A DNA stretch of 32,000 bases from Candidatus Poseidoniaceae archaeon. Its GTDB lineage: Archaea; Thermoplasmatota; Poseidoniia; Poseidoniales; Poseidoniaceae. The translations under genes and the position numbers were made by a program. Location of the stretch: the NCBI GenBank assembly GCA_943789275.1, contig CALSTM010000002.1, positions 720,001 to 752,000 on the forward strand, given 5' to 3'. This document shows, one piece after another, positions 8,197 through 27,107 of this stretch. Numbering within the stretch: the stretch's first letter is position 1; every line of letters starts with the position of its first letter. Under the pieces are notes generated by a model, which was not told the DNA's origin, ran no database searches, and saw nothing but the letters and a program-made list of their open reading frames with translations.

Positions 8197-8256
8197 GGTA
8201 TCCCTCAATGACAAGTCGCATGGCTTTGCCGTTTCAATGCACCGCTTAGAATTCGG

Positions 8257-9108: not shown

Positions 9109-9117
9109 AGAATCGCC

Positions 9118-9894: not shown

Positions 9895-9940
9895 TGCTTC
9901 ACCCGGAGGCAAGCCTCCGTGAACACCCACACACCTCCAC

Positions 9941-9964
9941 CCTATCAAGCCGACGCTTGATAGG
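9941..9964 (-). other. Perfect 10-bp stem, 4-nt loop hairpin or palindrome (CCTATCAAGC CGAC GCTTGATAGG) between pip and the coiled-coil gene.
   Basis: Read directly. It lies 30 nt downstream of the pip stop and 47 nt upstream of the 9894 ATG. No T-run follows it. Confidence 0.5.
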
Positions 9965-9993
9965 ACTGATTCTAACCAGCAAACGGACCAAGA

Positions 9994-10956
9994 TTAACGG
10001 TAAGAGTCCGTTACAGAAACAAGTTCTCTAGCGATGCTTACTTCCCCCATCGAATGGCCCGCATCCGGAACCAATACCAGATGGCTTGAAGGTACGGCTT
10101 TGTGCAATTCCCACGCACTGCGGGCTGGGCAAACTACATCGTATCGTCCTTGGATAATGTGCATTGGGATGTGTTGAATGGAATCCACATGATTGAGGAT
10201 ATGTGCTTCTTCAAGGAAAATAGCGTTGATGAAGTAATGGCATTCAATTCGAGCGAACGCAACTGCGAAATCTAAATCTTCAGCCTTTTCGAGGTATGAG
10301 TCGTCTGGGAAAAGACGGCTTGTGGCCATCTCCCAGCGCGTCCATTCCTTGGCGGCTGCACGCCGAACGGAGACATCTTCGCTGGTAAGGCGGGAATAGT
10401 ATGCTGTGATGAGGTCGTTCTGCTCATTCAAGGGGATATGTTCGCGGTATGCCTCAAATGCATCGGGGAAAATATGACTGGCTCCGTCTTGGTAAAACCA
10501 CCGAAGTTCGCTCTTTCGGCACATAAATATGCCACGCAACATCAAGCTAATTGCACGATTGGGATGCTGTTGAGCGTAAACCAGAGAGAGGGTTGAGCCC
10601 CACGAACCACCAAAGACATGCCACTCCTCGATACCGAAGGTCTCTCGAAGTAATTCAATATCATGAACGGATGCTTGGGTCGTGTTGTCTTCGAGTTCAG
10701 CGTATGGTGTTGATTTCCCGCATCCGCGCTGATCAAACTGGATAATGTTGTACGCAGTTGGGTCGAAGTACCGGCGGTATGCTGGCTGTCCACCACCGCC
10801 TGGTCCCCCGTGAATCACAATCACTGGCATGCCGTCAGGATTTCCACTCTTTTCCCAAGCAATTGTGTGCAAATCCGATACGCGTAACATGCCCGTTTCA
10901 TAGGGCTCTATCAGCGGATACAATACATCGTCAATCGTGGTCGTAACATCGAGCAT
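9994..10956 (-). CDS. pip: Proline iminopeptidase (alpha/beta hydrolase, S33 family).
   Basis: LYPLIEPYETGML, HGGPGGGG, nucleophile elbow GGSWGSTL and a C-terminal DAGHS. Confidence 0.9.
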   Translation of the reverse strand: MLDVTTTIDDVLYPLIEPYETGMLRVSDLHTIAWEKSGNPDGMPVIVIHGGPGGGGQPAYRRYFDPTAYNIIQFDQRGCGKSTPYAELEDNTTQASVHDIELLRETFGIEEWHVFGGSWGSTLSLVYAQQHPNRAISLMLRGIFMCRKSELRWFYQDGASHIFPDAFEAYREHIPLNEQNDLITAYYSRLTSEDVSVRRAAAKEWTRWEMATSRLFPDDSYLEKAEDLDFAVAFARIECHYFINAIFLEEAHILNHVDSIQHIPMHIIQGRYDVVCPARSAWELHKAVPSSHLVLVPDAGHSMGEVSIARELVSVTDSYR

Positions 10957-10994
10957 GAACCTTCGTAAGGCCGGCGAATATTGTTCTTATCGGA

Positions 10995-11651
10995 ATGGAC
11001 ATCTTCTTGGAATGGGTCGGTTCGACCGTTTTTATGAGCCGGAGAGAAGCGACCGAAGTTTTTAGCGAATGGGCCGAGAAAGGCAAAGACAAGGGTATGG
11101 AAAATGGCCATGCTGCATCGGTTCATGCCATGCTAAAGCTCGCCGGCATCCCTCGTTCAGAAACCTATTCTGCCGTTGACGTAGGATGCGGAAACGGTTG
11201 GGTATGCAGACTTTTAGCACAAGATGAAACTTCCACTCGTGTTGTAGGCGTTGACGGTTCTGAGGCCATGATTGCTAAAGCAAAAACGATTGATTCAGAA
11301 GGTGATTACCGCGTCACTGTGTTACCAGATTGGGAACCTTCAGAGAAATTTGATTTTGTCCACAGTATGGAATTCCTGTATTACCTTCACGACCCTCAAT
11401 CCATGCTCAAACAACTTCACGACAACTGGATGAACAGCGGTGGAATGCTGGTTGCAGGTGTTGACCATTACCTCGAAAATGAAGACAGCCTAAGTTGGCC
11501 TGAAGCATTGAACGTCCACATGACAACACTCAGCATGGACGATTGGAAAACAGCTATGATTGAAGCAGGTTTTAGGGACGTGGAACTTCACCAAGTTGCC
11601 GCAAAAGACTCGTTCATTGGGACACTGGTCATGTGCGGTAAAAAGGCCTAA
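10995..11651 (+). CDS. Class I SAM-dependent methyltransferase.
   Basis: Motif I VDVGCGNGW, then an acidic VGVDGSEAM, then FDFVHSMEFLYYL. Confidence 0.75.
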   Translation: MDIFLEWVGSTVFMSRREATEVFSEWAEKGKDKGMENGHAASVHAMLKLAGIPRSETYSAVDVGCGNGWVCRLLAQDETSTRVVGVDGSEAMIAKAKTIDSEGDYRVTVLPDWEPSEKFDFVHSMEFLYYLHDPQSMLKQLHDNWMNSGGMLVAGVDHYLENEDSLSWPEALNVHMTTLSMDDWKTAMIEAGFRDVELHQVAAKDSFIGTLVMCGKKA

Positions 11652-14600
11652 TCGTCGTCATCCCCAACAGGGCCGAGAACTGAGCCTTCAGGCCCGCATA
11701 GCCGGATTTGTCCGCGCCCAAATGGGCATTGAGAACAGATGTGCGATGAATCTTCAGGCAAGCGTGGAGGTTCACTCACCGCTTCGGGCGTAGCGGAGAG
11801 TTGCGCCATCCATTCAAGGTGTTGTGCAAGTGTTTGGGACGCAGATTCATATTCGTTTTGAGTCAACTGGACCATACGGCCCGATGCTCCGATGAGCAAG
11901 GCTGGAGGAAGGACTCTGCGGCGCTCACTCGCTGGCTTCTGTTGCTCAAGCACCTCGAGAGCCATCGAATACAGGGTTAACTGAAGTCGGTGTTCGTCGA
12001 GTATCGAACGCTCTTCCAAAGTTGATGGGTAAGGAACCAACACATCGCCCTTGTATCTTTGAAGACGGCTTCCAGACTCTGGGTTTTCTGAGTTGAACTC
12101 GTCACGGCACCCCTTGGTCTTCAAGTCGACCACTTGGAGACAGCCGTTGCCTTGCTCGTCGCGCATGGCGAGAACTAAATCCGCTCGTCCATCAAAAAGA
12201 ACATCAACGTGGTCAATTTGTGCAAGATTCTGGGTCCCTTCGACCGAAAAGCCGGTTCTAAGCAGGCCGTCAAATCCGACTTTATGCCGGAAAAAAAACG
12301 GAAGTTCGGTGCGTAATCCTTCGACTTTAAACCCGAAATGTTGCTCACCGGCAGCATACCGTCCAAGCAGTCCATTCCGGACCAGTGAACCGAGTTCAAC
12401 TAACCGATCGAAGGTTGGCTTGAAGGCTTCTGAATCTGTGGCAGTAATGCCTTCTTCTGTCAAAACGCGTACAATGGTTTCTTCATCGTCAAGTAAGTCC
12501 TTCCCGTCAAAAGTCCATGCAGCCATAAGTGGAGTAGAAGGCGGTGCATTCTTGATGAAAGGGTTTTCCAAACCAAGTTCCACCAACCGATGCATGAGTG
12601 TTCCAAAAACAGTCGCTGGCGGGTATATCGATACTGAGGACTCTGGCAAAGGCCGATTCAAAAAGAAATTCAGTGGTTCTGGGTTCCAGCCTTTCACTTC
12701 CGAGAGCCAGTGACGGCGAGGACAGGCAAAACTGGTATCCAGTCCATGGGCCGTCATTCGCATCATTTCACTGACAAGAGGAAGGGCGGTTTGAGGTGCT
12801 GGAACTGGACTCATCTGAGTCAGTTGAGTCTCAAGGTTCATCCATCGTTGAAGCGGAGTTGCTGTACTCAAGCCAGGGAAACAATCTGGAGAATGGTACA
12901 CATACAGGGATTTGACTGATTGAGGACCCAAGCATGCATCTTCAATCAGCGAACGGGGGTTGAAAGAAAGGGTCGTTTCCTTGTATTGCGAAAGCGAGGT
13001 TGCAAAGGAGTCATTTGGCTGAAGCCATGGCGAATCTTGAACACTGTTTTGATGAGACAAACTTCGTAATCCATCAAGCCACATGGCGCCCATCGTCTTC
13101 ATCGAAGGCTTACTCTTGAGTTCCAAAAAGCGAGTTTCTTCATGGATTGTTGCTGTGTCGCTAGGGGAGCCTACAACAATCAATCGGTCCTTCACACGGG
13201 TTAAAGCAACGTAGAACTCACGCCTGCGTTCAGCCTGTCGCTGCGCGTGGTCCATTCGTTTAGCAAATTCCCAAAGACCGTCATCTGGGCGGTCGCGTGA
13301 AGACCACGGATTGATTCGACCAGCAACCACTTGCGGAGTAACCAGGACATTGTTGCGTACTGCTAACGAAGCATCGGACTTACCCGCATGGAACATTCCT
13401 GCCACAACAACAACCGGAGCTTGGAGACCTTTTGCTCCGTGGATTGTCATCACTTGCACTGCCCCTCCAGAAGGCGTGATAATAGCAGAGGGACCCTTGC
13501 CACCGAGCGACTGAAGTGATTTCATGCGGTTGAATATTGCCGAGGCTTCATGACCCAATTCCTTACCAATTGAAGCTGAAAGTGCACACCAAGCCTCAGC
13601 GTTCTGCCGAGAAGTATCATCCGAGTATGCGAAGAGCAAGTCCGAATGGTCAAGAACGGCATCAAAGACATCGTGTACTGCACCTTGTTGCACCATCGAC
13701 TCCATGTGCTCCACCAGTCTTTTGACCGAATCACTGGGTGCAAATTTGTGCATTTTCTGCCACCAGGTTAACTCGTCGGTTGACGACATCAGAGCATGGG
13801 ATTGTGCGTCGTTAAATCCGAACACCGGAGAGCGAGCAAGAGCCAATGCAGCATGACGAGAATGAGGGAAAGCGATCAATTCAAGGCAAGCGAGCAGAGG
13901 AGCAACGACTGGCCGCTCCAAAAGCGCACCTTGCCGGTCAGCCATAACCGGTATGCCGCGAGATTGAAGGCGCTGAATCAAGTCGGGAATGTATTTTCTC
14001 GAATGAACCAAAATGAGTACGTCCTCAGGCCGAACGGCTGTGGAATTCGACGCCACTTTGTGGTACCCGTTTACCGATGCATCCCACACTTGTGTTGGGC
14101 TTTGAGTGACAAGAGCTTGCAATCGGGCAGCAATCAATTCGTTTTCGAGATGAGCACGTTTGGCATCAGGGTCTGCAAATGTATCAATTTGTTTTTCGAG
14201 GTCAAGGCTTGGGGGCTCAACTCCAATTTGCAACGGTAAAAGCCACTCAAGTACACCTTCGACTTCTTCTTTGACCTCTGCAGGTTCTTCAAGGTCCCTG
14301 GCGGGACGGAGTGATTGTGATTCAGCATGCCAATCTCCAGGTAGAACGTAATGCCGTTCATCGAATACATCGTCAAATAAACCGTTCATCGTCCGCATTA
14401 AGTTGTGGAGAGTTCGGTGGTTAGAGGTCAAGTCGATATGACCCAAAAGTCGCCGAGCTCGGCGCTCGTCAGAAACCAATTCTACGTAACCACTTCCGTC
14501 CTCAAATCCAACTTCGACGTGTTGCCACAACTGGGATTCCACTGCCTTACCTTCGATTTGAGAGCTTTGGATAAACGACTTTCCAGCACCAACTGGGCGC

Positions 14601-16624
14601 GGGTCTCTCCCACACCCCTCCACGCGTAAATGTTGCAGCCTTGGTTCTGATTCTTCAATCGAATTCGCCGATTGGATGGCTGCCACCGTACGGCGCATGA
14701 CCGTAACTTCTGCTTGTCGGAACCGGTAGATACTTTGTTTCATATCACCGACGATGCAAACGGTTGGGTCCCAGGGCCCTAAAGGTCGAAGCGGTTCATC
14801 TGCTTCGAGCCTACGATGGCCCCAGAGACGCGCAAGGAGACGGAAGTGTGCTGGGTTGGTGTCTTGGTATTCATCAATGATGAAGGCACGATATTGACGG
14901 CGAATCGTTTGCAAGGTGTAGAAACGGCGCTGAAGGTCTTCGTAGCATGACTGGTCTTCGCCAGCCAAGCGCATGGCACGAGAAATATGTTGGTCGGACC
15001 AAGGTTCGTCCCCCAACCGGTCAAGTGCTTGAACAACGACTGGAGGGTAGACATGGCGAACCATGTCCGGGCATCGTGCGAGCAAAAGATCCGCAACAAG
15101 GCGTTGTATGTCATCATAGTCGTGAACGCCTTCGTGGGCTTTACGTAGCGACAAAATATCCTGACAACCTCTGTGTACGACAAGCAAATCATTGAGTACA
15201 TTGGTTTGGAGTTCATCCGAAATTCGAAGGCGTCCTTCGGGTGCAAGGTCACTGAACGACAAGGTGACTTCCTGACAACGTATCTTCGAATCTTCAGGCA
15301 AAAACGGTAATTCCGAGGTGGGGTGGAGCAAGAAGGCACTGCGGCCGAGAAGGCAAACAAGCTTGCCGAGTCGGCCTGTCAAGAGGTCTTTCAGTTCATC
15401 TCCGGCATTCATCGCATCCACTACAACGGCTTCTTTTTCTGCCTTTGAAACGCCTTTGGCGGCGGATTTCGATAACAGTCCAGGGTGCCATCCTTCGGAA
15501 TGGTTGGCTTGCGGCAGACCTCCTTTCGGGAAGAAATTCGGTACTTCGTCCGCCAATTGGTTGGTTGTTGCCGCAGCAATCGCCACCTGCCAAACCCATT
15601 GCAGGCATTCGCCGGGGTCATCGGAAACTGTTTGACGAGCCAATTCAGTGAGATGGTTGAATCGGGTGAGAGTGGTTCCAATTTTCGCCTCACATGCGTG
15701 GACGTAACTTGCAGCGTGGTTCATGTAAACGTTAACCCATTCCGAAAGGGAATGTTGTAAGGATTGAGCAAAACCAACAACGGTATGCCGAACGGGTTCA
15801 AGGAACATATCCATGAGTATCTCGTAAGGCATTGGCCCATCACCGCTCCAATTATGCCCAAGTGTTTGCGCCCGAGCAAGCATGGCTTGATACGCCTCTT
15901 CAACGAACAGTGACTTGCCGAGCATTCCACTCAGTACGACGGCTGAACGTTCTTGACCGCCAAGCAGGACTGCGAGGCGGTTTCTTGATGCTAAGAACGC
16001 CCCGATGTGACCTCGAACTCCGGCTTCATGCGCATCATCGATGGTTCGAATCCGCCATGCTGAATGCAGTGCTTCCCTGATAAGGAGCGGCGCTCTTTCT
16101 TCAGAAATCTGCTCCCGGCTTGGATGAACTGCAACCAAGTCGAGATGCGGTGAGACAAGTTGAGAAAGAAAAGCATCGATGGTTGAAATCGGTGCTTCAT
16201 CGAGAGCAGACATCAAGGTCTCGATGTCTCCCTCGCGAATTCGAGGGTCGAAAATACCCTCGTCATCCGCTTTTTCCGTGGAGGTAGCACGGCTTTGGCC
16301 GACCCGGTGTCGGATTCTTGCTTTCAATTCTGCAGCGGCTTTCTTGGTGAATGTAATGGCTACAACTTCACTTGGCAGTAACCCCTTCCATTCCTTAGGA
16401 GGCGTTCGTTGACGAGGGGGTGCTCGCAAGAATCCGCTCGCTTGAATGGATTCTCGAGGGCCGGGCGGAAGTAAATGCGTAGCACGCTGCTCTGATGAGA
16501 GAAGGTGTTGCACATAGCGTTCAGCCATCACCGTCGTTTTCCCAGTGCCTGCGCCCGCATCCAACGCAATGTGTTTATCGAGGTCAAGGCCAAGTTGTTG
16601 GCTTCGATTAAATTCAATAATCAA
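11648..16624 (-). CDS. addA: AddA/RecB-like SF1 (UvrD-type) helicase fused to a C-terminal RecB-family PD-(D/E)XK nuclease with a Cys cluster (1658 aa).
   Basis: Walker A DAGAGTGKTT (16535..16555). Helicase motifs IIDEYQDTNP, GDMKQSIYRFR, TIHGAKGLQAP and FYVALTRVKDRLIV. Nuclease signature GRADLVL...VVDLKTKG (12110..12184) plus QLTLY. Cysteines are FACPRRHW and CSQCPFGRGQIRLC (11696..11737). The TTG start overlaps the upstream stop (TTGA). Confidence 0.85.
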   Translation of the reverse strand: MIIEFNRSQQLGLDLDKHIALDAGAGTGKTTVMAERYVQHLLSSEQRATHLLPPGPRESIQASGFLRAPPRQRTPPKEWKGLLPSEVVAITFTKKAAAELKARIRHRVGQSRATSTEKADDEGIFDPRIREGDIETLMSALDEAPISTIDAFLSQLVSPHLDLVAVHPSREQISEERAPLLIREALHSAWRIRTIDDAHEAGVRGHIGAFLASRNRLAVLLGGQERSAVVLSGMLGKSLFVEEAYQAMLARAQTLGHNWSGDGPMPYEILMDMFLEPVRHTVVGFAQSLQHSLSEWVNVYMNHAASYVHACEAKIGTTLTRFNHLTELARQTVSDDPGECLQWVWQVAIAAATTNQLADEVPNFFPKGGLPQANHSEGWHPGLLSKSAAKGVSKAEKEAVVVDAMNAGDELKDLLTGRLGKLVCLLGRSAFLLHPTSELPFLPEDSKIRCQEVTLSFSDLAPEGRLRISDELQTNVLNDLLVVHRGCQDILSLRKAHEGVHDYDDIQRLVADLLLARCPDMVRHVYPPVVVQALDRLGDEPWSDQHISRAMRLAGEDQSCYEDLQRRFYTLQTIRRQYRAFIIDEYQDTNPAHFRLLARLWGHRRLEADEPLRPLGPWDPTVCIVGDMKQSIYRFRQAEVTVMRRTVAAIQSANSIEESEPRLQHLRVEGCGRDPRPVGAGKSFIQSSQIEGKAVESQLWQHVEVGFEDGSGYVELVSDERRARRLLGHIDLTSNHRTLHNLMRTMNGLFDDVFDERHYVLPGDWHAESQSLRPARDLEEPAEVKEEVEGVLEWLLPLQIGVEPPSLDLEKQIDTFADPDAKRAHLENELIAARLQALVTQSPTQVWDASVNGYHKVASNSTAVRPEDVLILVHSRKYIPDLIQRLQSRGIPVMADRQGALLERPVVAPLLACLELIAFPHSRHAALALARSPVFGFNDAQSHALMSSTDELTWWQKMHKFAPSDSVKRLVEHMESMVQQGAVHDVFDAVLDHSDLLFAYSDDTSRQNAEAWCALSASIGKELGHEASAIFNRMKSLQSLGGKGPSAIITPSGGAVQVMTIHGAKGLQAPVVVVAGMFHAGKSDASLAVRNNVLVTPQVVAGRINPWSSRDRPDDGLWEFAKRMDHAQRQAERRREFYVALTRVKDRLIVVGSPSDTATIHEETRFLELKSKPSMKTMGAMWLDGLRSLSHQNSVQDSPWLQPNDSFATSLSQYKETTLSFNPRSLIEDACLGPQSVKSLYVYHSPDCFPGLSTATPLQRWMNLETQLTQMSPVPAPQTALPLVSEMMRMTAHGLDTSFACPRRHWLSEVKGWNPEPLNFFLNRPLPESSVSIYPPATVFGTLMHRLVELGLENPFIKNAPPSTPLMAAWTFDGKDLLDDEETIVRVLTEEGITATDSEAFKPTFDRLVELGSLVRNGLLGRYAAGEQHFGFKVEGLRTELPFFFRHKVGFDGLLRTGFSVEGTQNLAQIDHVDVLFDGRADLVLAMRDEQGNGCLQVVDLKTKGCRDEFNSENPESGSRLQRYKGDVLVPYPSTLEERSILDEHRLQLTLYSMALEVLEQQKPASERRRVLPPALLIGASGRMVQLTQNEYESASQTLAQHLEWMAQLSATPEAVSEPPRLPEDSSHICSQCPFGRGQIRLCGPEGSVLGPVGDDDD

Positions 16625-19600
16625 TTGACTTCACCTCCAAGGGTTGCTGAAGGACAAATTTGGCGAACTGAACAATACGAGCAATGCTTTCCAGGCGTTG
16701 GATTCACTGAGCCATTCGCTGCTGTTTCTATGGCTCTGTTCGCTGTGCGTATTCGTTCCTGAATCCATGCACGGAATCCATTGGATTCCGTGAAATCCGT
16801 ACCCAGCATTCGATGGTGGTTTTGAGTGTACATTGTGCGTTCGCCAATCTCACCGGTGCCAATGTATTTCAAAATCGACGAGTCGATTTCCACGTAATGG
16901 GTCGTCGACTCACCAATCTCAGAGACACCCACGCCGACTACTCGGTCCCCTGGATGACTCTGCTCCCATGCTCGAGCATACAATCCAAGCTGAACTTCGT
17001 CAAACAAAGCTTTGCGATGTCGGTCCCCCTTATCGCCAAACTTTGGGCCATTCACCGTCTTCAAATCACGAATGATGACAAAACGGCTTGCAGCGGATGG
17101 ATGCTCTAAGGAAAGGGGTTCATCCGGCGGAGATGCGGAAAGTACGCCGTCTTTGATGGCTTGAGTTCTCATTTCAGGGTCCAATACAATCGCGTCGACG
17201 CGATCGACTCTTCCTGACAAGTTGAACGTGACCGGTTGAGATAAGTCATCCACTCCATCGACGTTCACATAATTGCCCTTCTTTGAAGAGAACGCCCATT
17301 CACAGGCAAGTGGGCCAACTCCGGTAAGTGCGAAATCCGATTCAATCATACGTCCAATACGTCCGCTGGGTTCGAGTTCATGCTCCCCCTCAAGGTACAG
17401 CCTCCATTCAGCGGGTGTCACGCCAATCATCTCTCGACAACGGTGAACTGCTACAGCGTCATATCGAGTCAACCATGGGACTTCATCGGAGAGGTATGTC
17501 AAGACAGCGCCCCACAATGCATCAACGGAGTTGTTTGGACCAAGGTGAAGTGGTAAAGGGGAAGAGACTGCATCTTCAGCTGTCGGGATTCCATGACTTC
17601 GTAACAAAGCCGCTTCAGTGTCGTGTATGAGCGTCCCGCGAGTACGCGATTCAAGATCCTCGCTCAAGGTTTCCTCGGCTCTGGCTTTGAGTTGCGTATC
17701 CATCCACGCTTTCCGAGGACATTGCAGCCATGACTGCAAGCGGCTTTGAGACCACTTTTCTCGCTTGATGGAAGATGACTTTAGCCCCAATGTCGAGTTG
17801 AGAACTTCGCTTGGGAATGTGTATCCTGGTAACGGCCTCGGGTCAATTGCGGGACCCCTTGACCTGCTGTTGACCTTCAAACCAAGATGCGGCCAATGTT
17901 TCTGCTGGCTTGAGCCAACCCCTACTTGAGACTTCGTTGGTTGGAGAATTATCCCGTCGACGCTCAAGAGATGATGTCGATTCTCCCATGTAAAGTAATC
18001 ACCATTATCGAGGTTTTTCATGACCGGTTGACGAAGATGTCGGTCGTTTTGAAGTTCCAACTCATGGGCCAGGGCAAGGCTGGTGTTCGAAAGAACTGCT
18101 GCCTCGGGCGTCCCACCGTCTCCAAGTTCAAGACCTGAACGTTGACGAACATCGCGTCCGCGGCGCCCACCTCGCTCACCAACTGCTCTACCGTCGCGCA
18201 TCGACATGGTGAACGGTCTTGGAGTAAGCCAAACGTTCCCTCCACCGTGTTCATCATTCGTCCAATGCCAACTTCGGTGGGGATTTCCTTCCTGATGCGA
18301 TTGCTCGTCTAGGAACGAAGGGGCTTGGTTGAACGATGAAAGCGTTCCATCGGCACGAGTTTCTGCCAACCATTCTGCTAATGGAGCACTGGGGCCACCG
18401 CCTTCTTCTGCACTTGTATCAAACACAACAACCTCAGAACCTGCATTGAGCAGATGGCGAAGATGATGCCTTCCTTGACGGATGGTTAAATCCGATGAAA
18501 AGAGTCCCAGTCGTAATTGGGCTGGCGCATCGAGCCACGGAACCTTTGACGCCTTCATTGTCCATGAGTTCACATCCAGCCCTACCAAGAGAATGAGGTC
18601 TGCTTCAACCCCAAGAGCCTTCTCGGGGGTAAGAACAAGAACATTTTTTCCTCGAGAGCGAGAGCGAGGGAGAGACGTTCTCGACAAGGTTTGTTCAAAA
18701 TGTTGAATGAATTGTTCTCCGTTCTTCGGCGAATGCAAATTCGCTTTTTCTAACAATCCTTGAGTGGTTTGATACGCTTCTTTGACCATTTGAAGGCCCG
18801 CAAGGGAACGATCAAAAAGAGCGGTCCTCTTGGTTAAATCTCCCCAATTTAGCCGTTGATAGACCGCATCCAACCATTCGGCACCGGTCTTCAATCGAGG
18901 AGGGAGCGGGAGTCTTTGCCCAGAAGAGCATCCAATCGCTTCGCCTTCGAGGGAGCGGCGCGATTCATCATCAATCAGTGGTGCCCAAATACGGGCCACA
19001 CAATGCATCCACCATTGCGTCTCCTCAAGGGCTTGGCGTTGCCGCTCAGGGTTTTCTCCAAGCTGTGGTGTGGCCTGCGCCAATATTGCCAACCAGCGTG
19101 ACAGACTTCCAAGGCCGCCACGGACATGGAATGAACGCGCGATGTTCTCTAAGATTTCTGGATGAGGACGAGGCGCCCAAGTCCGCTCACTTGGATGGTT
19201 TAGAGATTCAACCGCTCCGTTGATTAACGGCAGGCTGTTGTGTTCATACAAAACTCGGAGGTGCTGCAAAGACCATGCTTCCATTCCAATTCCAAGTTTC
19301 ATTGCTCGTAAAAGACCTGAGACGGCCGGTACGTGTTCCAAGTCCACCTTCTCAGCACCGCAAGTAAAACCCAACGGTTTGATACGCGAATGCCACTGAG
19401 GTAGATTTGACTCCGCAGCACCATCAATTATCAGCACCGTTCCCGAGGAACGGAGTGAGAAAGAGCGTAATAACTCAATGGCCGCATCCATGCTGTGTTT
19501 GCAACGTTCAAGTGTCACGCGATGCAGGCTTGTTTGGCGTTCAATTCCACGTCGAGAGCACCATGGCACGTTTGCCGTGGGTTTCCAAACTTCGTGTTTT

Positions 19601-20451
19601 GGAAGCCATTCTGGAAGGTTTTTTTGAGTCACATACTCCCATTCTGCTTCAAAGAGATATGCTCCGTGATGGCCTAAACGGAATGAACCTGCACAACACA
19701 ATTGATGAATCGGACGATGTCTCGACAACTGTTGATAGAAGGAGCGTTCTATTTCGGTGAAATCAGGTGCAGTGTTGAGCAAGACAATTCCATCCACATC
19801 GTTCAGAGTGAACGGGGAATATTCCGATTGAAGGAGAGCTTGAGTCAGTACATGGAGTGCATGATGAGGATGAGTCCCCGATAGAGTCAACTCAACACGG
19901 TTGAGTATTTTGTCGAAATCACGAGCCCCTGGGTCCTCCTCCCATGCCCAGGGCTGGTTGAGTTGGGTGAGGGTTCGGTGCAACATAAGCACACGTTCAG
20001 TTTGAAATGGAGACCACTTTCTGCCTTCGATGGCGGAAAATAGTAAGGGTAAATCGCCGTTTTCAGCGGCAAGTTTGGTGTGCGCATGCACAACTGCGAA
20101 TGTACCTGCTTCATCGTCGAGCAACGGTGGGAGGCCTAAATCCAAAATGAGCAACTGTGCAAGCCGTTGAAGCGTGAGGTGGTGAGTTGTATCAACGGGC
20201 GCATCGATCTGTGATAATCGAATTAACGTCTGGTTGCGGCTGGCCTCATTCGGGTGGACGACAAGGAGATTCGCCGCATCACCACTGCACAACGCCTCAA
20301 TCAGCCAAGGAGGCAAGTTATCTCCCGAATCAATTGCCTCGAGAGTGATTGATACAGTCGAATCGTGTTTCATCTCGGCCGCCCCATCACCATTACAGAC
20401 GCCGACTGTTCTTGAAGGCTCGTTGCCAAAACGAAGTGGTGTGTATATCAT
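16621..20451 (-). CDS. addB: AddB-like subunit (1276 aa). The N-terminal helicase-like region has no recognisable Walker A. The C-terminus is a RecB-family nuclease with a Cys cluster.
   Basis: C-terminal motifs: LQCPRKAW, GRVDRVDAIVL, FVIIRDLKTVNG, EVQLGLYARAW and HCSYCSVRQICP (16654..16683). Gene order (B then A) and coupling match bacterial addBA operons. No GxGKT is visible in the N-terminal 100 aa. Confidence 0.7.
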   Translation of the reverse strand: MIYTPLRFGNEPSRTVGVCNGDGAAEMKHDSTVSITLEAIDSGDNLPPWLIEALCSGDAANLLVVHPNEASRNQTLIRLSQIDAPVDTTHHLTLQRLAQLLILDLGLPPLLDDEAGTFAVVHAHTKLAAENGDLPLLFSAIEGRKWSPFQTERVLMLHRTLTQLNQPWAWEEDPGARDFDKILNRVELTLSGTHPHHALHVLTQALLQSEYSPFTLNDVDGIVLLNTAPDFTEIERSFYQQLSRHRPIHQLCCAGSFRLGHHGAYLFEAEWEYVTQKNLPEWLPKHEVWKPTANVPWCSRRGIERQTSLHRVTLERCKHSMDAAIELLRSFSLRSSGTVLIIDGAAESNLPQWHSRIKPLGFTCGAEKVDLEHVPAVSGLLRAMKLGIGMEAWSLQHLRVLYEHNSLPLINGAVESLNHPSERTWAPRPHPEILENIARSFHVRGGLGSLSRWLAILAQATPQLGENPERQRQALEETQWWMHCVARIWAPLIDDESRRSLEGEAIGCSSGQRLPLPPRLKTGAEWLDAVYQRLNWGDLTKRTALFDRSLAGLQMVKEAYQTTQGLLEKANLHSPKNGEQFIQHFEQTLSRTSLPRSRSRGKNVLVLTPEKALGVEADLILLVGLDVNSWTMKASKVPWLDAPAQLRLGLFSSDLTIRQGRHHLRHLLNAGSEVVVFDTSAEEGGGPSAPLAEWLAETRADGTLSSFNQAPSFLDEQSHQEGNPHRSWHWTNDEHGGGNVWLTPRPFTMSMRDGRAVGERGGRRGRDVRQRSGLELGDGGTPEAAVLSNTSLALAHELELQNDRHLRQPVMKNLDNGDYFTWENRHHLLSVDGIILQPTKSQVGVGSSQQKHWPHLGLKVNSRSRGPAIDPRPLPGYTFPSEVLNSTLGLKSSSIKREKWSQSRLQSWLQCPRKAWMDTQLKARAEETLSEDLESRTRGTLIHDTEAALLRSHGIPTAEDAVSSPLPLHLGPNNSVDALWGAVLTYLSDEVPWLTRYDAVAVHRCREMIGVTPAEWRLYLEGEHELEPSGRIGRMIESDFALTGVGPLACEWAFSSKKGNYVNVDGVDDLSQPVTFNLSGRVDRVDAIVLDPEMRTQAIKDGVLSASPPDEPLSLEHPSAASRFVIIRDLKTVNGPKFGDKGDRHRKALFDEVQLGLYARAWEQSHPGDRVVGVGVSEIGESTTHYVEIDSSILKYIGTGEIGERTMYTQNHHRMLGTDFTESNGFRAWIQERIRTANRAIETAANGSVNPTPGKHCSYCSVRQICPSATLGGEVN
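16631..16638 (-). promoter_or_regulatory. Shine-Dalgarno GGAGGTGA for the AddA-like gene, embedded in the 3' end of the AddB-like gene.
   Basis: The minus strand reads GGAGGTGA AGTCAA TTG A, with the TTG start and TGA stop overlapping at 16621..16624. Confidence 0.6.
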
Positions 20452-20729: not shown

Positions 20730-21929
20730 ATGACTGAAGACATGAACCAAAAGAAGATTGAATTGACAAACTGCGATGAGTGCGCAAGCAAAAACCTCAC
20801 CGCTATGCCCGAAAAGGGAGAAACATGGTGCGACGACTGTGGCCTTGTCCACAAAGACCAGAAGATTCTGGCGAACGACAACGGAAACGCACTGTTCGGC
20901 GAAGGGGCTCACTACCACTCCGTTCGGCAAGATGCTGACCAAAACCGAAACATGGGTGGGACCGGTCCAAAAATGCGGTACGGTTCCAAGGGCGTAATTA
21001 ACCCAGGCAAATACCGATTGCTCGAGAAAATCGACCGAAGCACCGTTCGCAACCCACACCCATTTGCCAACCGTGTCAAACGTAACATCGAACAGTTGTA
21101 CGGCCGTCACGCTCTCCACATCCTCGAATACATCGTTGAGATGTCATGCAAGCCACTTACCGGTCAACAAGAGCTGATTCGAAAGAAGCAAAGCAAGTCA
21201 CTCGCTAAGCGATTGGGCATGCCAAAACAATCCATTTGCCGCAAGGACAAGGGTATCAAGGGTTCTTCAGAGGAACAAAACGCCGTAATCATTGCTGCAG
21301 CAATCGTTGAACTGGCAGGAGATTTGGGCATCATGCCAAAGTTCGACCGACGTTCCACCATGGACAAGGCCGATATCACTCCAAAACAAATCAGCAGCGC
21401 TCGTATTCGTATTTTGCAACACTGGAAGGCCCGCCTTACCATGAAATGGGCAGCCATGCCTCCACGAAAGAACGCAAACGACCGCCGAGAGGATTCAATC
21501 ACTCAGGCCATGGAACACGTGTTCGAAATGCTCGGAGAACACCTCAGTACTGAGGACTACGAGAAGGTGTTGTATGAAACAGAAACTCGCTTGGCTCTGC
21601 TCAAAGAAGGGACTGGTGGAGCACTGACCATCAATATTGAAGCACGAATGGTCGTTTGCGTTACCGCCTACGCCAGTTTGAACTTCTTCGGATTGCAATC
21701 CGGAGCTGCTGATTTACTTGCTGCCGTTTTTGGCCTCACAAGCAGTGGGATTCGTTCCCGCTACGATGCACTGGTGAAGAAATCCGAAGCCGGGACATTT
21801 CATGATGCTGGCGCTTTTGACGTATCGATAGCATGCTACGACCCTGAATCCGACAAACACGCACAGAATGCATTGATAGCCAAAGTTCGCTTGGGCAAAG
21901 TATGCGGAAAGCGTACCTCCTCGTCTTAA
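20730..21929 (+). CDS. tfb: Divergent transcription factor B (TFIIB-family) paralogue, 399 aa.
   Basis: N-terminal TFIIB-type zinc ribbon CDEC-x15-CDDCGLV (20772..20840). Helical, cyclin-like segments follow (GSSEEQNAVIIAAAIVELAGDLGI...ITPKQISSARIRIL). The B-reader/linker region is poorly conserved and the protein is about 100 aa longer than a typical TFB. AAAGGAG lies 9-10 nt upstream. Confidence 0.65.
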   Translation: MTEDMNQKKIELTNCDECASKNLTAMPEKGETWCDDCGLVHKDQKILANDNGNALFGEGAHYHSVRQDADQNRNMGGTGPKMRYGSKGVINPGKYRLLEKIDRSTVRNPHPFANRVKRNIEQLYGRHALHILEYIVEMSCKPLTGQQELIRKKQSKSLAKRLGMPKQSICRKDKGIKGSSEEQNAVIIAAAIVELAGDLGIMPKFDRRSTMDKADITPKQISSARIRILQHWKARLTMKWAAMPPRKNANDRREDSITQAMEHVFEMLGEHLSTEDYEKVLYETETRLALLKEGTGGALTINIEARMVVCVTAYASLNFFGLQSGAADLLAAVFGLTSSGIRSRYDALVKKSEAGTFHDAGAFDVSIACYDPESDKHAQNALIAKVRLGKVCGKRTSSS

Positions 21930-22831
21930 TTGTCTTCTTGATGGCCTTTGTGCCTTCATCGACCGTGGCAGCACCAGCAACTCAGACCGATGTTGGAATG
22001 TTGTTCGGTGGGCAGTGGTCGCTAGCGAACGAGAGTGGAGTTGTATCAACCAACCTGAGCGAATTACCACCCATCGTCGAAGTGTACACAGCCACATGGT
22101 GTTCAAACTGTGTCGATGTCGAGCACGCTTTGGACAACATCGAGAACGAAAGTGGCATCCAACAGTACCACATTCACAGGGCCATTAATGAAATTCAAGA
22201 CCCATTAGGCAGCATCGAAATCGATCAACACTTCATTGACCGCTATGGCACTCAAGCGCCTCCAGCAGTGATCTTTAATGGCACTACCATCAAAATAGGT
22301 AGTATCGCTGAAGCTGCATCGTTGGAAGAAGAGTTTACTTCGCTTTCCGAGATCCACCTCTCGCTTATCGGCGACTCGAGTTTTGCTTGGACGCCTGTTT
22401 CACAAGATGCTGGGTTCGTCGCATGGTCCCTTGATGTTGAAAACATGATTGCTCCTGAAGGCAGTACCATCGTTGCTCAGGCATGGATTGTCGAAGACTC
22501 GGCCCGATTTGAAGACGGGTCAAACGGTCTCGAAAATTACCCGCACGTTGTAAGGGGAATCGTTGAATTAGGTCACCTAAACCTCACGAGCGAATCCGTT
22601 TCCATGACCGGTAATACGACCGTTTCACTCCCACCTGCATACGATGGGTCCGACCTGTCTGTTCACCTTCTGTACCAGTTGAATTATCCGGTTGAAAGTG
22701 TGGAAGATGTTAGCCAAAACAACGAATGTGAAGGAACGGATTGCGAAGACGAAGAACAATTTATTCCTGCAGCATCGATACTGATGAGCATGAGCGTTCT
22801 TATTGGCGTGGCTTTGTTACGTAACGATTGA
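21902..22831 (+). CDS. Secreted, C-terminally membrane-anchored thioredoxin-fold protein with a CxxC motif.
   Basis: Signal-peptide-like N-terminus MRKAYLLVLIVFLMAFVPSSTVAAP. Thioredoxin-like VEVYTATWCSNCVDVEHAL. Acidic linker ECEGTDCEDEEQ followed by a TM anchor (IPAASILMSMSVLIGVALLRND). It overlaps the TFB-like gene by 28 nt. Confidence 0.6.
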   Translation: MRKAYLLVLIVFLMAFVPSSTVAAPATQTDVGMLFGGQWSLANESGVVSTNLSELPPIVEVYTATWCSNCVDVEHALDNIENESGIQQYHIHRAINEIQDPLGSIEIDQHFIDRYGTQAPPAVIFNGTTIKIGSIAEAASLEEEFTSLSEIHLSLIGDSSFAWTPVSQDAGFVAWSLDVENMIAPEGSTIVAQAWIVEDSARFEDGSNGLENYPHVVRGIVELGHLNLTSESVSMTGNTTVSLPPAYDGSDLSVHLLYQLNYPVESVEDVSQNNECEGTDCEDEEQFIPAASILMSMSVLIGVALLRND

Positions 22832-22841
22832 GTTCACGGGA

Positions 22842-25193
22842 TTATTTGTGTTGGGGAAGCCTGCGGTTTACATCGCGAAGGTCTTGTTGTAATTCCGAAC
22901 GAAAATTACCGGGTTTTTGAGGCGTCTGCATTACCTCACTGAAGTGCCAATGCCACGGCGGCGCATCTGGAACGCCGAGAGAGGATTGAGCACTATCAAG
23001 ATGAAGCGAGAGGTTTCGGCGCGCCGTCTGCTTAGCATGATCTCTTCGCACAAATACGGTTTTTTGGTCCTGAGTACCGTTCTCAACAAATCCAAGGAGA
23101 ACGGCAAACCTTCGAATAATGCGTCGTTCCTGAGGACTGCGCACGGTCATCGAAAGATGGCAGTGCTCAAAGGTAACATCATCGCCATCCAAAACCCCAA
23201 GCCGGAAGGTCGAGCCAATTGGATGCAAGAACAAGGCTTCCCAAATTCTCGGGAATATTTCGCAGAACCGTCGCTCTCCGTTTCGAATATCACCGACTGG
23301 TAGGTTTTCGACAATTGCTATTTGTCGCTGTCTTTGATGTTGGAGTTGCACCCAATTGTTCCGTTCACGCCCGAAATGGTGGAAGAAATGATGCATTTCT
23401 GACTCTTCCTCAAGAGGACCGTCTTTCAACGATTTGTGCCACATTTCAATGAACTGCGGATGCGGCATAGTGGAATTTGCCGCTACGGCGTGCTCGACAA
23501 GAACATCACATCGAGATTTATGATTCGGACCGACATCGTCACGTTGCCATCGTCGGCGGTTGAAAGCTATGTTTCTACGGAACAAATGCATCATGTTGTG
23601 TTGCTCCCCCAGTTCTCCCACAGACTGGTCTCGCGGTAACCATCGAATACTGCTCGCGTGTTGATTCATGATTTGTTCGAATTGTTTGACTGTTGAATCG
23701 TGGAGAAATGGAAGGTGCTTTTCGGTCAATGGTGTAGGGAAACCAAGCGGAGACCTTGAGGCAATGTGTTCCCTTAAACTATCGATTTTTCCGGAGGTTT
23801 TGACATCGTCTACCAGAGACAAAATTACTGACACGATTGTATCCCCGAGAGGAACCGTGGTATGAAATGAGCCTTCATGAATACAAAGCGGTGTAGTCCT
23901 TCTCGGTTCTAAGGAATCTATCGCCCGAATAACAAACGGCGCTCGATGGGCTCCTTTGCCGACTTTGACTTCATAGAAATGACCCATCCGACCGATAACC
24001 AACATGCACTCATCATGAACAAAAACCCTGTCCGAATTGCTGTCAATGACTTCACGGAGAAACTGAATTGAGCGACGAAGAGGGGCAGGTATCTGGTGAG
24101 ATTCATGTTTTGAATCGGTCCAATTATGCTGTAAAGCATAGAGCAGATTAGAGGCTGAGGACTTGAGAGGTGAGTAGGCAAGAGAAAGGAGATAGGCCCA
24201 AACTGCTGGCTCGTCTGGAACGGTTGTTTTTCTCGATGCGTTGTTTTTCGACCGCACAACGAACTTGAGTTTTCCACCAACAATTTCAAACGGCAGGGTT
24301 CGAGCGTTTTGGAACTGATTGGGTTGAGAATAGACGAGCCATCGTCTGGTCCAGGGATAGGTGGCGAGTTCCTCTAATCCGGTCGGATGGTGGCTAAATG
24401 CTTCTTTCAAACGGTTCTCAAACTTCGTCCCAATCGGTGTTGAAAGCCTTTGACGAACATCGCGAGACCAGACGCCCAGTGGATTCATTAGCAAATGTTT
24501 TGGTGGTTCAAGTTCCTCTTCAGCCATCCATTCAACCCATGAAAGCATAGACGAGGCGATCGGCTTATCCAAAGATTCACGGATTCGATGAAGGCCAATG
24601 AGACGGCGGGGTAGCCTGCGAATTTCGAGGGTTTCTATGGCATCTGTTCTCATGCAGGCGATGGCTGTGAGTAATTTCGACATGTTCCATCCGCGCCGGT
24701 TTTTCTTCGAAGAAAGGAGAGTCAGTACTGAAACCATCGGAATCACTGCAAATGTTACTCTGCCGTTGATGTACATCTGATCCTCTCGAAACGATATGTG
24801 TGCGCCATCGAAGAGATGGAAGCCACAATGCAATTGATTTCGCTGTTTTTTATCCAACCGTACGCCGTCAGAAATCCGCTGGATGATGGTTTTCATCTCA
24901 GCATCGTCGCACGGGGCTGACAGCACTGGGTCCATCGTGGAATCCGGTAACCTCGCCCAGCAAACATCTTCAGTTTGAGACACATTCTGCACCAGATTGC
25001 GCCAACGTTGCCTCGCTGTGCAACTTCCACCACCAATCAATTGCAGTGCTTCAGTATGTTTATGCTCAGGAATCTCATACGACCACCTTTTACCTGTTTT
25101 AGAAACGATAAGCGATTCACACAGCAGGCACGGTGTTGTTGGTGAAGGGTGCTCGCAAACAGAGCAAAACGAGGTGTGCAATTGCCCAACCAT
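22842..25193 (-). CDS. Large orphan protein (783 aa) with an N-terminal zinc ribbon. It has no family I can recognise, but it does show a PD-(D/E)XK-like signature.
   Basis: Uninterrupted 2.35-kb ORF. Zinc ribbon CSVC-x8-CLLC (25119..25166). Central RVFVHD-x13-EVKV (23958..24029). The protein is Arg/His/Trp-rich. Confidence 0.7.
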   Translation of the reverse strand: MVGQLHTSFCSVCEHPSPTTPCLLCESLIVSKTGKRWSYEIPEHKHTEALQLIGGGSCTARQRWRNLVQNVSQTEDVCWARLPDSTMDPVLSAPCDDAEMKTIIQRISDGVRLDKKQRNQLHCGFHLFDGAHISFREDQMYINGRVTFAVIPMVSVLTLLSSKKNRRGWNMSKLLTAIACMRTDAIETLEIRRLPRRLIGLHRIRESLDKPIASSMLSWVEWMAEEELEPPKHLLMNPLGVWSRDVRQRLSTPIGTKFENRLKEAFSHHPTGLEELATYPWTRRWLVYSQPNQFQNARTLPFEIVGGKLKFVVRSKNNASRKTTVPDEPAVWAYLLSLAYSPLKSSASNLLYALQHNWTDSKHESHQIPAPLRRSIQFLREVIDSNSDRVFVHDECMLVIGRMGHFYEVKVGKGAHRAPFVIRAIDSLEPRRTTPLCIHEGSFHTTVPLGDTIVSVILSLVDDVKTSGKIDSLREHIASRSPLGFPTPLTEKHLPFLHDSTVKQFEQIMNQHASSIRWLPRDQSVGELGEQHNMMHLFRRNIAFNRRRWQRDDVGPNHKSRCDVLVEHAVAANSTMPHPQFIEMWHKSLKDGPLEEESEMHHFFHHFGRERNNWVQLQHQRQRQIAIVENLPVGDIRNGERRFCEIFPRIWEALFLHPIGSTFRLGVLDGDDVTFEHCHLSMTVRSPQERRIIRRFAVLLGFVENGTQDQKTVFVRRDHAKQTARRNLSLHLDSAQSSLGVPDAPPWHWHFSEVMQTPQKPGNFRSELQQDLRDVNRRLPQHK

Positions 25194-25214
25194 AGTAGGT
25201 TAGATTATCGAGAG

Positions 25215-25222
25215 TATTTAAT
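25215..25222 (-). promoter_or_regulatory. TATA-like box (ATTAAATA on the minus strand) overlapping the threonine aldolase stop codon. It is positioned for a leaderless transcript of the 783-aa orphan.
   Basis: One mismatch to TTTAAATA. Its centre is about 25 nt upstream of the ATG at 25193. No SD lies in the 24-nt gap. Confidence 0.3.
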
Positions 25223-26307: not shown

Positions 26308-26724
26308 TTAGAGGAGTTTCAATTCACCCGTAATGGCTTGAAATTGCTCTTCCGTATCTGGCCCCAGTGCAAGTACAGTGAGTGAACCGCTTGGGATTTG
26401 TGTGTGGCCTGCGTCGTGGACAAGTGTCGTCATAATGCCTGCTTCTTTGGCTGATTTTTCAAGCACCAATAAGTGCTCGGCATCCGTTCCTTTTAAGCAG
26501 ACTTTTTTTTGCCCAGTAGCGAGCCATTGTTCGAGGTAAAGTGGTTTGATGGAGCCGGCTTTCATTGTAGCCATCACCGCTCCGTGTCCGACTTGAGCGG
26601 CCATTTTCCCTTTACCCATCTTCAATCCTTGATTGACGACACACACCATTTTACACGGCCCTTTCGGGTTTTGCCCGCTTGGAGAAGGAGCTGTGAGTCG
26701 ATGTAAAAAAGAACGTAATCCCAT
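26308..26724 (-). CDS. pth2: Peptidyl-tRNA hydrolase, archaeal/eukaryal Pth2 type (paralogue B), with an N-terminal extension of about 25 aa.
   Basis: KMVCVVNQGLKMGKGKMAAQVGHGAV...VHDAGHTQIPSGSLTVLALGP. GGTGAT lies directly after the upstream stop, 4 nt from ATG 26724. The ORF track starts at GTG 26727. Confidence 0.8.
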   Translation of the reverse strand: MGLRSFLHRLTAPSPSGQNPKGPCKMVCVVNQGLKMGKGKMAAQVGHGAVMATMKAGSIKPLYLEQWLATGQKKVCLKGTDAEHLLVLEKSAKEAGIMTTLVHDAGHTQIPSGSLTVLALGPDTEEQFQAITGELKLL

Positions 26725-26732
26725 CACATCAC

Positions 26733-27107
26733 CTAATACGGTTTCAAGTCCGATACAAGAGCATCAATGGCGCGACGGGGTGCTGGACCAATACCGAGGA
26801 CTGTAATCGTCCCCGGCGGAACTTCAGTGTGACCTGCATCTTTGACAAGCGTCGTCACTAGACCGGCCGCTTGTGCCTGTCCAGCAAGCCGTTGAAGCGT
26901 TTCGAGGTCGTCTGCACGTAGGCAAATTTTCCTCGCCCCCCCGTTCTTCCAACGCTCAACAAGTCGGGCATGAGACTTGCGAGCATTCAACGTGCAGGTT
27001 ACAGCAGCGTGCGAACACTGGACGGCAAGTTTGCCTGCTGACATCTTGAGGTCTTTGCGAGCAATGAGTACCATTGATGGGTCTTCAGCCGTCGATACCA
27101 TGGCCAT
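26733..27107 (-). CDS. pth2: Peptidyl-tRNA hydrolase, Pth2 type (paralogue A).
   Basis: MVLIARKDLKMSAGKLAVQCSHAAV...VKDAGHTEVPPGTITVLGIGP. The start is ambiguous: ATG 27107 or 27101 overlap the upstream gene, and ATG 27074 would give a canonical N-terminus. Confidence 0.8.
   Translation of the reverse strand: MAMVSTAEDPSMVLIARKDLKMSAGKLAVQCSHAAVTCTLNARKSHARLVERWKNGGARKICLRADDLETLQRLAGQAQAAGLVTTLVKDAGHTEVPPGTITVLGIGPAPRRAIDALVSDLKPY

Follow-up and report, generated by a model that had tools for sequence, protein, structure and literature searches.

The described proteins nearest to the one reported here resemble it in single parts: the PD-(D/E)XK nucleases (PDDEXK_1, as in AddB and AddA), the zinc ribbons of the TFB/TFIIB type (Zn_Ribbon_TF), the UBC/E2 and RWD folds (FANCL ELF/DRWD, the Mad1 C-terminal domain) and the winged helix of LP1413, a single-stranded DNA (ssDNA)-binding protein of SCCmec (PMC6851490). 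Its promoter resembles the TATA/TFB leaderless promoters of Haloferax volcanii, one of the archaea in which leaderless mRNAs (leader of 0–5 nt) form the majority, at 72% (PMC4983044). The protein, of 783 aa, is encoded in a 32,000-nt stretch of DNA from a Candidatus Poseidoniaceae archaeon (assembly GCA_943789275.1, contig CALSTM010000002.1, positions 720,001 to 752,000; hereafter the window). Its family is new in the sense that it has no nameable family or fold relative; it is not a demonstrated new mechanism. As judged from sequence, the superfamily occurs in Marine Group II archaea alone and is related to no family that has been characterised. Marine Group II is among the most abundant planktonic archaea of the surface ocean, and to our knowledge none of its members has been cultured. 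Lineage-specific conserved hypothetical proteins are common; this one stands out by its size, its constraint, its single order-wide slot, an invariant Cys/Asp site and a tandem paralogue with an acidic tail.

The gene is a minus-strand ATG-initiated open reading frame (ORF) that runs without interruption, at the position and length given in an earlier note on this DNA:

22842..25193, minus strand: coding sequence, 783 aa plus stop; the Poseidoniaceae (Marine Group IIa, MGIIa) long form of an uncharacterised Poseidoniales-specific superfamily

We are highly confident that this ORF is a genuine gene, strongly constrained by purifying selection, with an order-wide slot, a Cys4 cluster, a TATA promoter and constrained residues in its core and C module, and that D394, E408 and K410, on which a nuclease assignment had been built, are not conserved. 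A homologue search of 5.8 billion proteins gave 37 clusters of full-length homologues, 745–808 aa long and 36–99% identical. Marine metagenomes and archaeal metagenome-assembled genomes (MAGs) are their only sources, no cluster has a Pfam domain, and 'hypothetical protein' is the sole name given. A pattern scan over one genome per GTDB species found an orthologue locus in at least 48 species genomes; the 48 loci, which include the closed MG-II chromosome CM001443.1, are titled Candidatus Poseidoniales, Poseidoniaceae or, generically, Methanobacteriota or Euryarchaeota archaeon. An exhaustive hidden Markov model (HMM) search of 1.84 billion representatives yielded 144 superfamily representatives at E<=1e-3, and those that carry labels are all Poseidoniales, including Thalassarchaeaceae (Marine Group IIb, MGIIb), 'marine group II/III' and marine euryarchaeal MAGs, and all go by the name 'hypothetical protein'. 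The description of the gene as an orphan in the earlier note thus holds solely in the sense that it is without a characterised relative. Against an 87%-identical orthologue (L006) the ratio of nonsynonymous to synonymous substitution rates (dN/dS) is 0.10 over the whole gene at dS 0.67, and it is lowest in the central core and the C module (values below).

That no known family can be assigned, as had been remarked from the sequence, is borne out by every library consulted. Pfam, NCBIfam, PADLOC and PHROGs give 0 matches at E<=10, PDB sequences searched with two family profiles give nothing, and Foldseek gives no match at E<=0.001 (best E 0.28 for the full model and 0.16 for the core alone, both against PDB; none in BFVD). 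Among 61 distant members Pfam has no match at 0.01, and at E<=10 each weak family is matched by one member alone. No viral relative is found on the IMG/VR contigs searched or, by tblastn, in 50,697 phage genomes. Profile-profile, AlphaFold and Foldseek comparisons, which the earlier note had proposed, therefore return no known family, and no nuclease core is seen. A calmodulin-like PDB match over residues 556–632 (E 0.04, single-sequence search) was rejected as compositional noise. A large, single-copy, constrained, order-wide gene, apparently transcribed separately, is thus unseen by family and fold libraries, which points to lineage-specific cell biology that annotation misses.

The AlphaFold2 model has a mean predicted local distance difference test score (pLDDT) of 75.8, with 83–90 in the core, and shows three modules, N (residues ~8–185), core (~275–480) and C (~640–775), split by variable, partly disordered linkers. 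Residue columns were counted in the family-HMM alignment of 113 superfamily members and, for the closer relatives, in an alignment of 23 MGIIa orthologues. From the N-terminus the features are:

25119..25166, minus strand: N-terminal Cys4 cluster C10-x2-C13-x8-C22-x2-C25; four Cys each at least 90% conserved in the 23 orthologues

24639..25076, minus strand: domain D1, residues 40–185; pLDDT ~90, winged-helix-like order of elements

24567..24638, minus strand: Arg-rich disordered linker, residues 186–209; pLDDT <50 at 186–203, family mean net charge +4.1

23739..24308, minus strand: superfamily core, residues 296–485; the lone region common to all 144 representatives, dN/dS 0.055

23805..23948, minus strand: conserved polar stretch of the core with H416, C437, G450-D451 and D463, from the column counts over 113 members

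23292..23738, minus strand: variable region, residues 486–634; His-/Arg-rich low complexity, pLDDT <50 at 523–558 and 592–634

22959..23291, minus strand: C module, residues 635–745; alpha, three strands, alpha, two strands, alpha; dN/dS 0.07

22842..22958, minus strand: Trp-rich C-terminal tail PPWxWH ... FRxELxxDLRD and stop, from the ORF map and the orthologue alignment

The core holds the residues that survive the deepest divergence. Its lobe A (302–356) is modelled with three strands and two helices, and its lobe B with a helix (372–385), a five-strand meander (390–435) and further helices (449–479). Both D451 (23841..23843) and D463 (23805..23807) are kept in 113/113 members, C437 (23883..23885) in 112/113 and H416 (23946..23948) in 92/112; G401, G404, Y407 (Y/W), G414 and G450 also survive across the 113. 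In the order of the modelled strands H416 belongs to the loop that joins strands 3 and 4, C437 comes immediately after strand 5 and D451 caps the next helix, an arrangement that would place H416 and C437 on the same edge of the sheet, near D451. In the MGIIa orthologues many Trp, Gly and Pro residues are invariant, and so are H405, H439 and H444. When the core is re-predicted alone with a deeper alignment its confidence falls to pLDDT 63.9. Profile-profile comparison gives probabilities of no more than 2% for internal repeats among the four beta-meander/helix lobes.

The C module carries a second set of MGIIa invariants, namely G634-D-x-R-x-G-E-R-R-x-C-E645 (GDxRNGERRxCE), F675, C678, T683, R685 and E689; the PPWxWH of the tail is invariant in MGIIa too. 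It is present in the long forms of the superfamily and missing from the mid and short paralogues described below, and the variable region before it is shortened or missing in relatives of 610–710 aa.

At the other end of the protein, the CSVC-x8-CLLC pair that the earlier note had read as a zinc ribbon is present as residues 10–25 at the position given, and its conservation extends beyond the orthologues, as a CxxC...CxxC opens every paralogue class (far long, mid and short). The Cys4 cluster probably binds zinc. It shares with the TFB/TFIIB-type ribbons a conserved CxxC...CxxC at the protein start, from which it differs in a spacer of just 8–10 residues and in a second CxxC modelled at the N-terminus of a helix (treble-clef-like): the model has isolated bridges at 9 and 16 and a helix (23–29) that begins at the second CxxC, at pLDDT 51–77. 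No Pfam zinc-ribbon family is matched by the protein at E<=10, and the N-terminus shows no similarity to the neighbouring TFB-like protein. In D1 the modelled elements are alpha60–71, beta90–92, alpha97–109, alpha115–123, beta132–136 and beta139–142, and the invariant residues include W64, W79, D88-P89-V90, G110, L121, G124-F125 and N143-G144. This alpha-beta-alpha-alpha-beta-beta order suggests a winged-helix-like domain. The best small-domain Foldseek match of the whole model is 6btc (LP1413), with a template modelling score normalised to the target (TMt) of 0.52, a non-significant match (Foldseek probability, prob, 0.33; E 2.1) for which the aligned part of the query was not reported and which presumably belongs to D1.

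A second weak theme concerns the core. UBC/E2 and RWD folds recur in both the full-model and the core-only Foldseek runs against PDB: UBE2A, Rad6, Ube2N, Cdc34, Atg10 and UBE2Z for the former, and FANCL (E 0.16), CDC34, Rad6, UbcH5 and the Mad1 RWD domain for the latter, all non-significant (E>=0.16, prob<=0.30, TM-score normalised to the query, TMq, <=0.24; best E2 matches at E 1.0–3, TMt<=0.34). The likeness consists in the order helix, antiparallel meander, Cys loop and helices, and FANCL DRWD has two consecutive lobes of this kind, as does the core. The differences from UBC/E2 are five strands in place of four, no HPN or YPxxxP motif, and a gene context without E1, ubiquitin-like (Ubl) or JAB genes; HPN is missing from the orthologue alignment, and the core, compared by hhalign with a verified E2 alignment, scores a probability of 0.3% (positive control, 99.9%). 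Both the UBC/RWD and the winged-helix themes are leads, not assignments. A SWIM (PF04434) reading, prompted by a superficial likeness of the spacing C-x-H...G-D in the core to the SWIM pattern CxC...CxH, was tried and rejected: of the ligands the first Cys (C437) alone is present, C437+2 is H, V or Y, and L-G-D stands where CxH would be.

The paralogues divide the superfamily into classes that differ in their C-terminal parts. The window has a single copy in the slot between an aldolase-like gene and the gene of a 309-aa protein; at 12 far loci that slot is occupied by a tandem of two paralogues on the same strand. One, the 'mid' copy (~550–595 aa), keeps the Cys cluster and the core Cys and Asp, has no equivalent of His416, and in place of the C module has an acidic Trp-rich tail, for example DDDDEWDDEWDDE, with a net charge of -21 to -33 over its last 110 aa and an isoelectric point (pI) of 4.3–5.2. 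The other, the 'long' copy (~650–690 aa), retains the C module and has a nearly neutral pI of 6.3–7.7. Two such pairs are:

L061: mid copy 7145-8914 and long copy 8971-11031, mid upstream

L078: mid copy 7625-9361 and long copy ~9400-11439, mid upstream

The tandem occurrence of mid and long copies suggests a two-subunit arrangement. Other tandem loci are L060, L062-L070 and L074. A third class, of ~390–450 aa, consists of the Cys cluster and the core without the C module; it is found in Thalassarchaeaceae (L079, 9001-10299; L080, 9001-10167), in another conserved setting, between an AIRS/AIRS_C gene and Trm1 (PF02005) with a MoaA-like radical SAM gene.

What the protein does can be approached through its charge. 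It contains 70 Arg, 32 Lys, 87 Asp+Glu, 42 His and 18 Trp (pI 9.2), in agreement with the hand count of the earlier note. The acidic neighbours with which that note contrasted it are indeed acidic for the most part (pI 4.1–6.1); the TFB-like protein (9.1) and both PTH2 proteins (9.3, 9.6) are basic too. All 23 MGIIa orthologues have a pI of 8.1–9.5, with the positive charge concentrated in the 186–209 linker and in the C module (family mean net charge +5.2). Taking these observations together with the N-terminal features, we favour, as a serious possibility that falls somewhat short of probable, a non-nuclease zinc-finger factor that associates with nucleic acid. The MGIIa long form would be a cytoplasmic multidomain housekeeping protein in which the Cys4 cluster holds zinc and D1 folds in a winged-helix-like manner; these two parts, with the Arg-rich linker and the positive C module, would tether the protein to DNA or RNA, and the core would then perform a non-nuclease role, binding a ligand, a metal or a partner at the Cys-Asp(-His) site. 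Our confidence falls from zinc binding by the Cys4 cluster, through the winged-helix-like D1, to nucleic-acid association in MGIIa, and it is for the MGIIa subfamily, with its basic pI, its Cys4 and its D1, that nucleic-acid binding is plausible, not for the superfamily as a whole.

Several points weigh against this reading. The binding of nucleic acid is a prediction. Its winged-helix component is based on the order of secondary-structure elements and the non-significant 6btc match, and Pfam has no helix-turn-helix (HTH) family for the protein at E<=10. The basic pI is restricted to the single-copy MGIIa orthologues: the distant superfamily members have a median pI of 6.7, and both partners of the tandem loci, at the values given above, are near neutral or acidic, so that basic charge is not a superfamily-wide trait. 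The neighbourhood (aldolase, PTH2, secreted thioredoxin-like, TFB-like, AddAB) gives no coherent functional signal.

One alternative is the reading proposed in the earlier note, a PD-(D/E)XK nuclease with catalytic D394...E408-x-K410 on strands of the central domain. The residues exist, in a segment that had been quoted 6 nt too narrowly on each side (as 23958..24029) and that reads SDRVFVHDECMLVIGRMGHFYEVKVGKG over 28 aa:

23952..24035, minus strand: the formerly 'PD-(D/E)XK-like' segment S387–G414, with the non-conserved D394, E408 and K410 on strands 1–3 of lobe B

Helix 372–385 and the three strands that follow (372–411) mimic the first half of an alpha-beta-beta-beta-alpha-beta core, which is the point of likeness to PD-(D/E)XK nucleases; AddB and AddA, genuine nucleases of this class, are encoded 2.4 kb away. 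All three residues are variable, however. In the alignment of 23 orthologues the position of D394 may also hold E, A, Q, N, K or H, that of K410 also R, S, Q or A, and that of E408, mostly E, also D or N; across the superfamily D394 is Asp in 24/112 (21%), E408 is Glu in 33/112 (29%) and K410 is Lys in 22/113 (19%). The protein contains nine strings of the form D-x(8-30)-[DE]-x-K, so the D394...K410 pattern is a chance one. The modelled topology of 372–461 (helix 372–385, meander 390–435, helix 449–461) continues to five strands, with no alpha and then beta4. The restriction-endonuclease-like fold is abundant in PDB, and neither the full model nor the core alone has a Foldseek match to it there; no PDDEXK family is matched at E<=10, in Pfam by the protein or its 61 relatives or in NCBIfam by the protein. 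With the motif unconserved and the core topology wrong, the two observations that the earlier note had itself named as speaking against a nuclease are both made, and we consider this reading very improbable. Two other placements of the motif were tried and rejected: in G-D451...D463-x-K465 the Lys is unconserved and the residues are part of a helix, and in the C module, whose order of elements is alpha-beta-beta-beta-alpha-beta-like, D669/D671/D672 and E676 vary and (D/E)xK is lacking. In place of the chance motif, the residues truly conserved are Cys437, Asp451, Asp463, His416 and GDxRNGERRxCE. Equally improbable is a domesticated or resident gene of a mobile element or virus (SWIM/MULE-like or magrovirus-derived). 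It could appeal to the top BFVD match, A0A516M0H5 (an unnamed 441-aa protein; prob 0.98, E 1.4e-3 over 342 columns), and to a very weak BFVD match with a phage SWIM-type protein (E 2.3). The former match has TM 0.12/0.20 and a root-mean-square deviation of 18.7 A, no SWIM family of Pfam is matched at E<=10 by the protein or the 61 relatives, relatives are absent from IMG/VR contigs, the phage genomes and PHROGs, and the gene sits in a chromosomal slot fixed order-wide within a window of even GC content (0.47–0.52 throughout).

The core site itself allows two further readings. A thiol-dependent enzyme, E2-like or cysteine-hydrolase-like, would use Cys437 as nucleophile or thioester carrier with His416 and Asp451 in a UBC/E2- or RWD-like lobe; the near-invariance of Cys437 and Asp451, the His kept in 92/112, the lowest dN/dS in the core, the recurrence of UBC/RWD as the only theme common to two independent Foldseek runs and the E2-like order of helix, meander, Cys loop and helices all speak for it. 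Yet the matches are non-significant, the E2 profile comparison fails where its control succeeds, HPN is lacking, His416 is missing from the acidic mid paralogues, the neighbourhoods examined are free of genes for E1-like, ubiquitin-like or JAB proteins, and the isolated core is modelled with low confidence, so that we regard such an enzyme as improbable. Somewhat better placed, though still unlikely, is a non-catalytic scaffold or interaction factor in which Cys, Asp and His form a structural, possibly metal, site and the lobes assemble partners, among them the acidic paralogue in Thalassarchaeaceae-type genomes. The 12 tandem loci are in its favour, as are the acidic Trp-rich mid tails, a feature that would suit a partner subunit or one that acts like a chaperone; lobes of the RWD/UBC kind, should these be real, typically serve for interaction, the loss of confidence in the isolated core implies extensive inter-domain packing, and most invariant residues are Trp, Gly and Pro, that is, structural. 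On the other hand, the organism of the window has a single copy in the slot, and the invariance of one Cys and two Asp over very deep divergence suggests a functional site rather than pure packing. A bolder version of the thiol enzyme, in our view also improbable, would make the core a new alpha+beta fold and Cys437-Asp451(-His416) a novel thiol centre, either an E2-like carrier or a cysteine-dependent enzyme that modifies nucleic acid or protein, targeted by the zinc finger and D1 and working as two subunits in Thalassarchaeaceae. The non-nuclease zinc-finger factor remains our preferred reading. The domain boundaries, the paralogue classes, including the acidic-tailed tandem partner, and the leaderless-type promoter make the family testable by heterologous expression.

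The promoter was noticed in the earlier note as a TATA-like sequence that overlaps the upstream stop codon with no Shine-Dalgarno (SD) sequence after it, and each part of that description is confirmed:

25215..25222, minus strand: TATA-like box ATTAAATA, at -29..-22 from the A of the ATG

25209..25214, minus strand: conserved CTCTCG element adjoining the 3' end of the box; consensus in the family N-Y-C-T-C/A-G

25191..25193, minus strand: ATG start with the probable transcription start within a few nt, from the box-to-ATG spacing and the lack of an SD

The box takes in the TAA stop codon (25218..25220) of the aldolase-like gene upstream, and the 21 nt between it and the ATG at 25193 contain no SD-like purine run. 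Of 43 distinct upstream regions of orthologues, 36 have a box that begins at -29/-28, whereas 500 shuffles gave 2.7 such regions on average and never more than 7; variants of the box include TTGAAATA, TTCAAATA, xTTATATA and xTTAAATA, its position is kept among orthologues of just 36–40% protein identity, and in most orthologues, as in the window, the 21 nt before the ATG have no GGAGG-like run. Archaeal TATA boxes are centred ~26–27 nt upstream of the transcription start, so the observed spacing predicts a start at or beside the ATG. Expression from the gene's own promoter as a leaderless mRNA, independent of the upstream MCM...aldolase string, is thus a well supported prediction, as the earlier note had supposed. 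Six loci depart from it: in L003, L009, L036, L038, L040 and L048 the box is at -36/-37, and L003 and L038 have GGAG a few nt before the ATG, L003 also having an upstream in-frame GTG. The shifted boxes point to a short SD-bearing leader or to a different start codon at these loci.

In its A/T-rich 8-mer ~25–26 nt upstream, its fixed spacing and its lack of an SD the promoter resembles those of the Haloferax volcanii type. It differs from the classical description of archaeal promoters by B recognition element (BRE), TATA box and proximal promoter element (PPE) in the YCTCG 3' of the box, and its transcription start is a predicted one. The composite AWATANNCTCG occurs twice in the window, where 0.19 occurrences are expected. 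The same box and CTCG element, with 26-nt spacing to the ATG, precede an unrelated gene of ~238 aa in one sub-clade (L039 and L044-L047/L050), so the composite is probably part of a general promoter architecture of the lineage and not a dedicated operator. The second exact copy in the window, AAATACCCTCG at 16252-16262 (plus strand), lies antisense in the AddA-like gene, ~370 nt inside its 5' end near the AddA/AddB junction; it may serve as an antisense promoter or have arisen by chance. Literature searches on Poseidoniales with leaderless transcripts, and on Marine Group II with AddAB, found nothing.

The slot belongs to a long conserved block. In Poseidoniaceae the order MCM, GatB/E-like, PQQ-propeller, DUF6580, PTH2, PTH2, Beta_elim_lyase (the aldolase-like gene), the studied gene, a convergent pair, AddB-like and AddA-like holds over loci whose proteins share between 99% and 28% identity, the convergent pair being the secreted thioredoxin-like 309-aa protein and the TFB-like protein. 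At 23 far metagenome loci (~25–36% local identity) the studied gene, the 309-aa homologue, TFB-like, AddB and AddA are still together; in these far-relative loci, of the MGIIb type, the 309-aa gene has the reverse orientation. As the functions in the block are unrelated, we read its order as inherited synteny, not as a functional link of the operon type. The proximity to AddBA and the TFB-like gene (2.4 kb) that the earlier note had singled out is accordingly real and conserved order-wide and yet uninformative, as the whole unrelated block is conserved with it; as functional evidence AddAB proximity is weak. Rfam and tRNA scans of the window found no RNA genes.

The stop codons of the studied gene and of the convergent gene at 21902..22831 are 10 nt apart, which leaves the two transcripts either to overlap or to end inside coding sequence. 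That gene (21902-22831, plus strand) encodes the 309-aa protein, of pI 4.1, which combines a hydrophobic, signal-like N-terminal segment with a thioredoxin-type motif, WCSNC, and a membrane anchor at the C-terminus; it has no Pfam match. The TFB-like gene (20730-21929, plus strand) overlaps it by 28 nt and stands beside the studied gene order-wide; its product (pI 9.1) has a sub-threshold TFIIB zinc-ribbon match (22.2 bits, cutoff 29) and no cyclin-fold match. The AddA-like (UvrD helicase and PDDEXK_1, 1658 aa) and AddB-like (PDDEXK_1, 1276 aa) genes, at 11648-20451 on the minus strand, are of bacterial type in an archaeal genome; the AddA-like gene starts at 16624, and the position of the two is conserved across Poseidoniales. 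On the other side of the studied gene, two tandem PTH2 paralogues (139 and 124 aa, both basic) lie at 26308-27107 on the minus strand and are paired in all Poseidoniaceae loci examined. Farther off, a 655-aa acidic protein (4671-6638, minus strand) has a C-terminal EF-hand pair (579–638) as its only Pfam domain, unrelated to the calmodulin-like noise in the studied protein.

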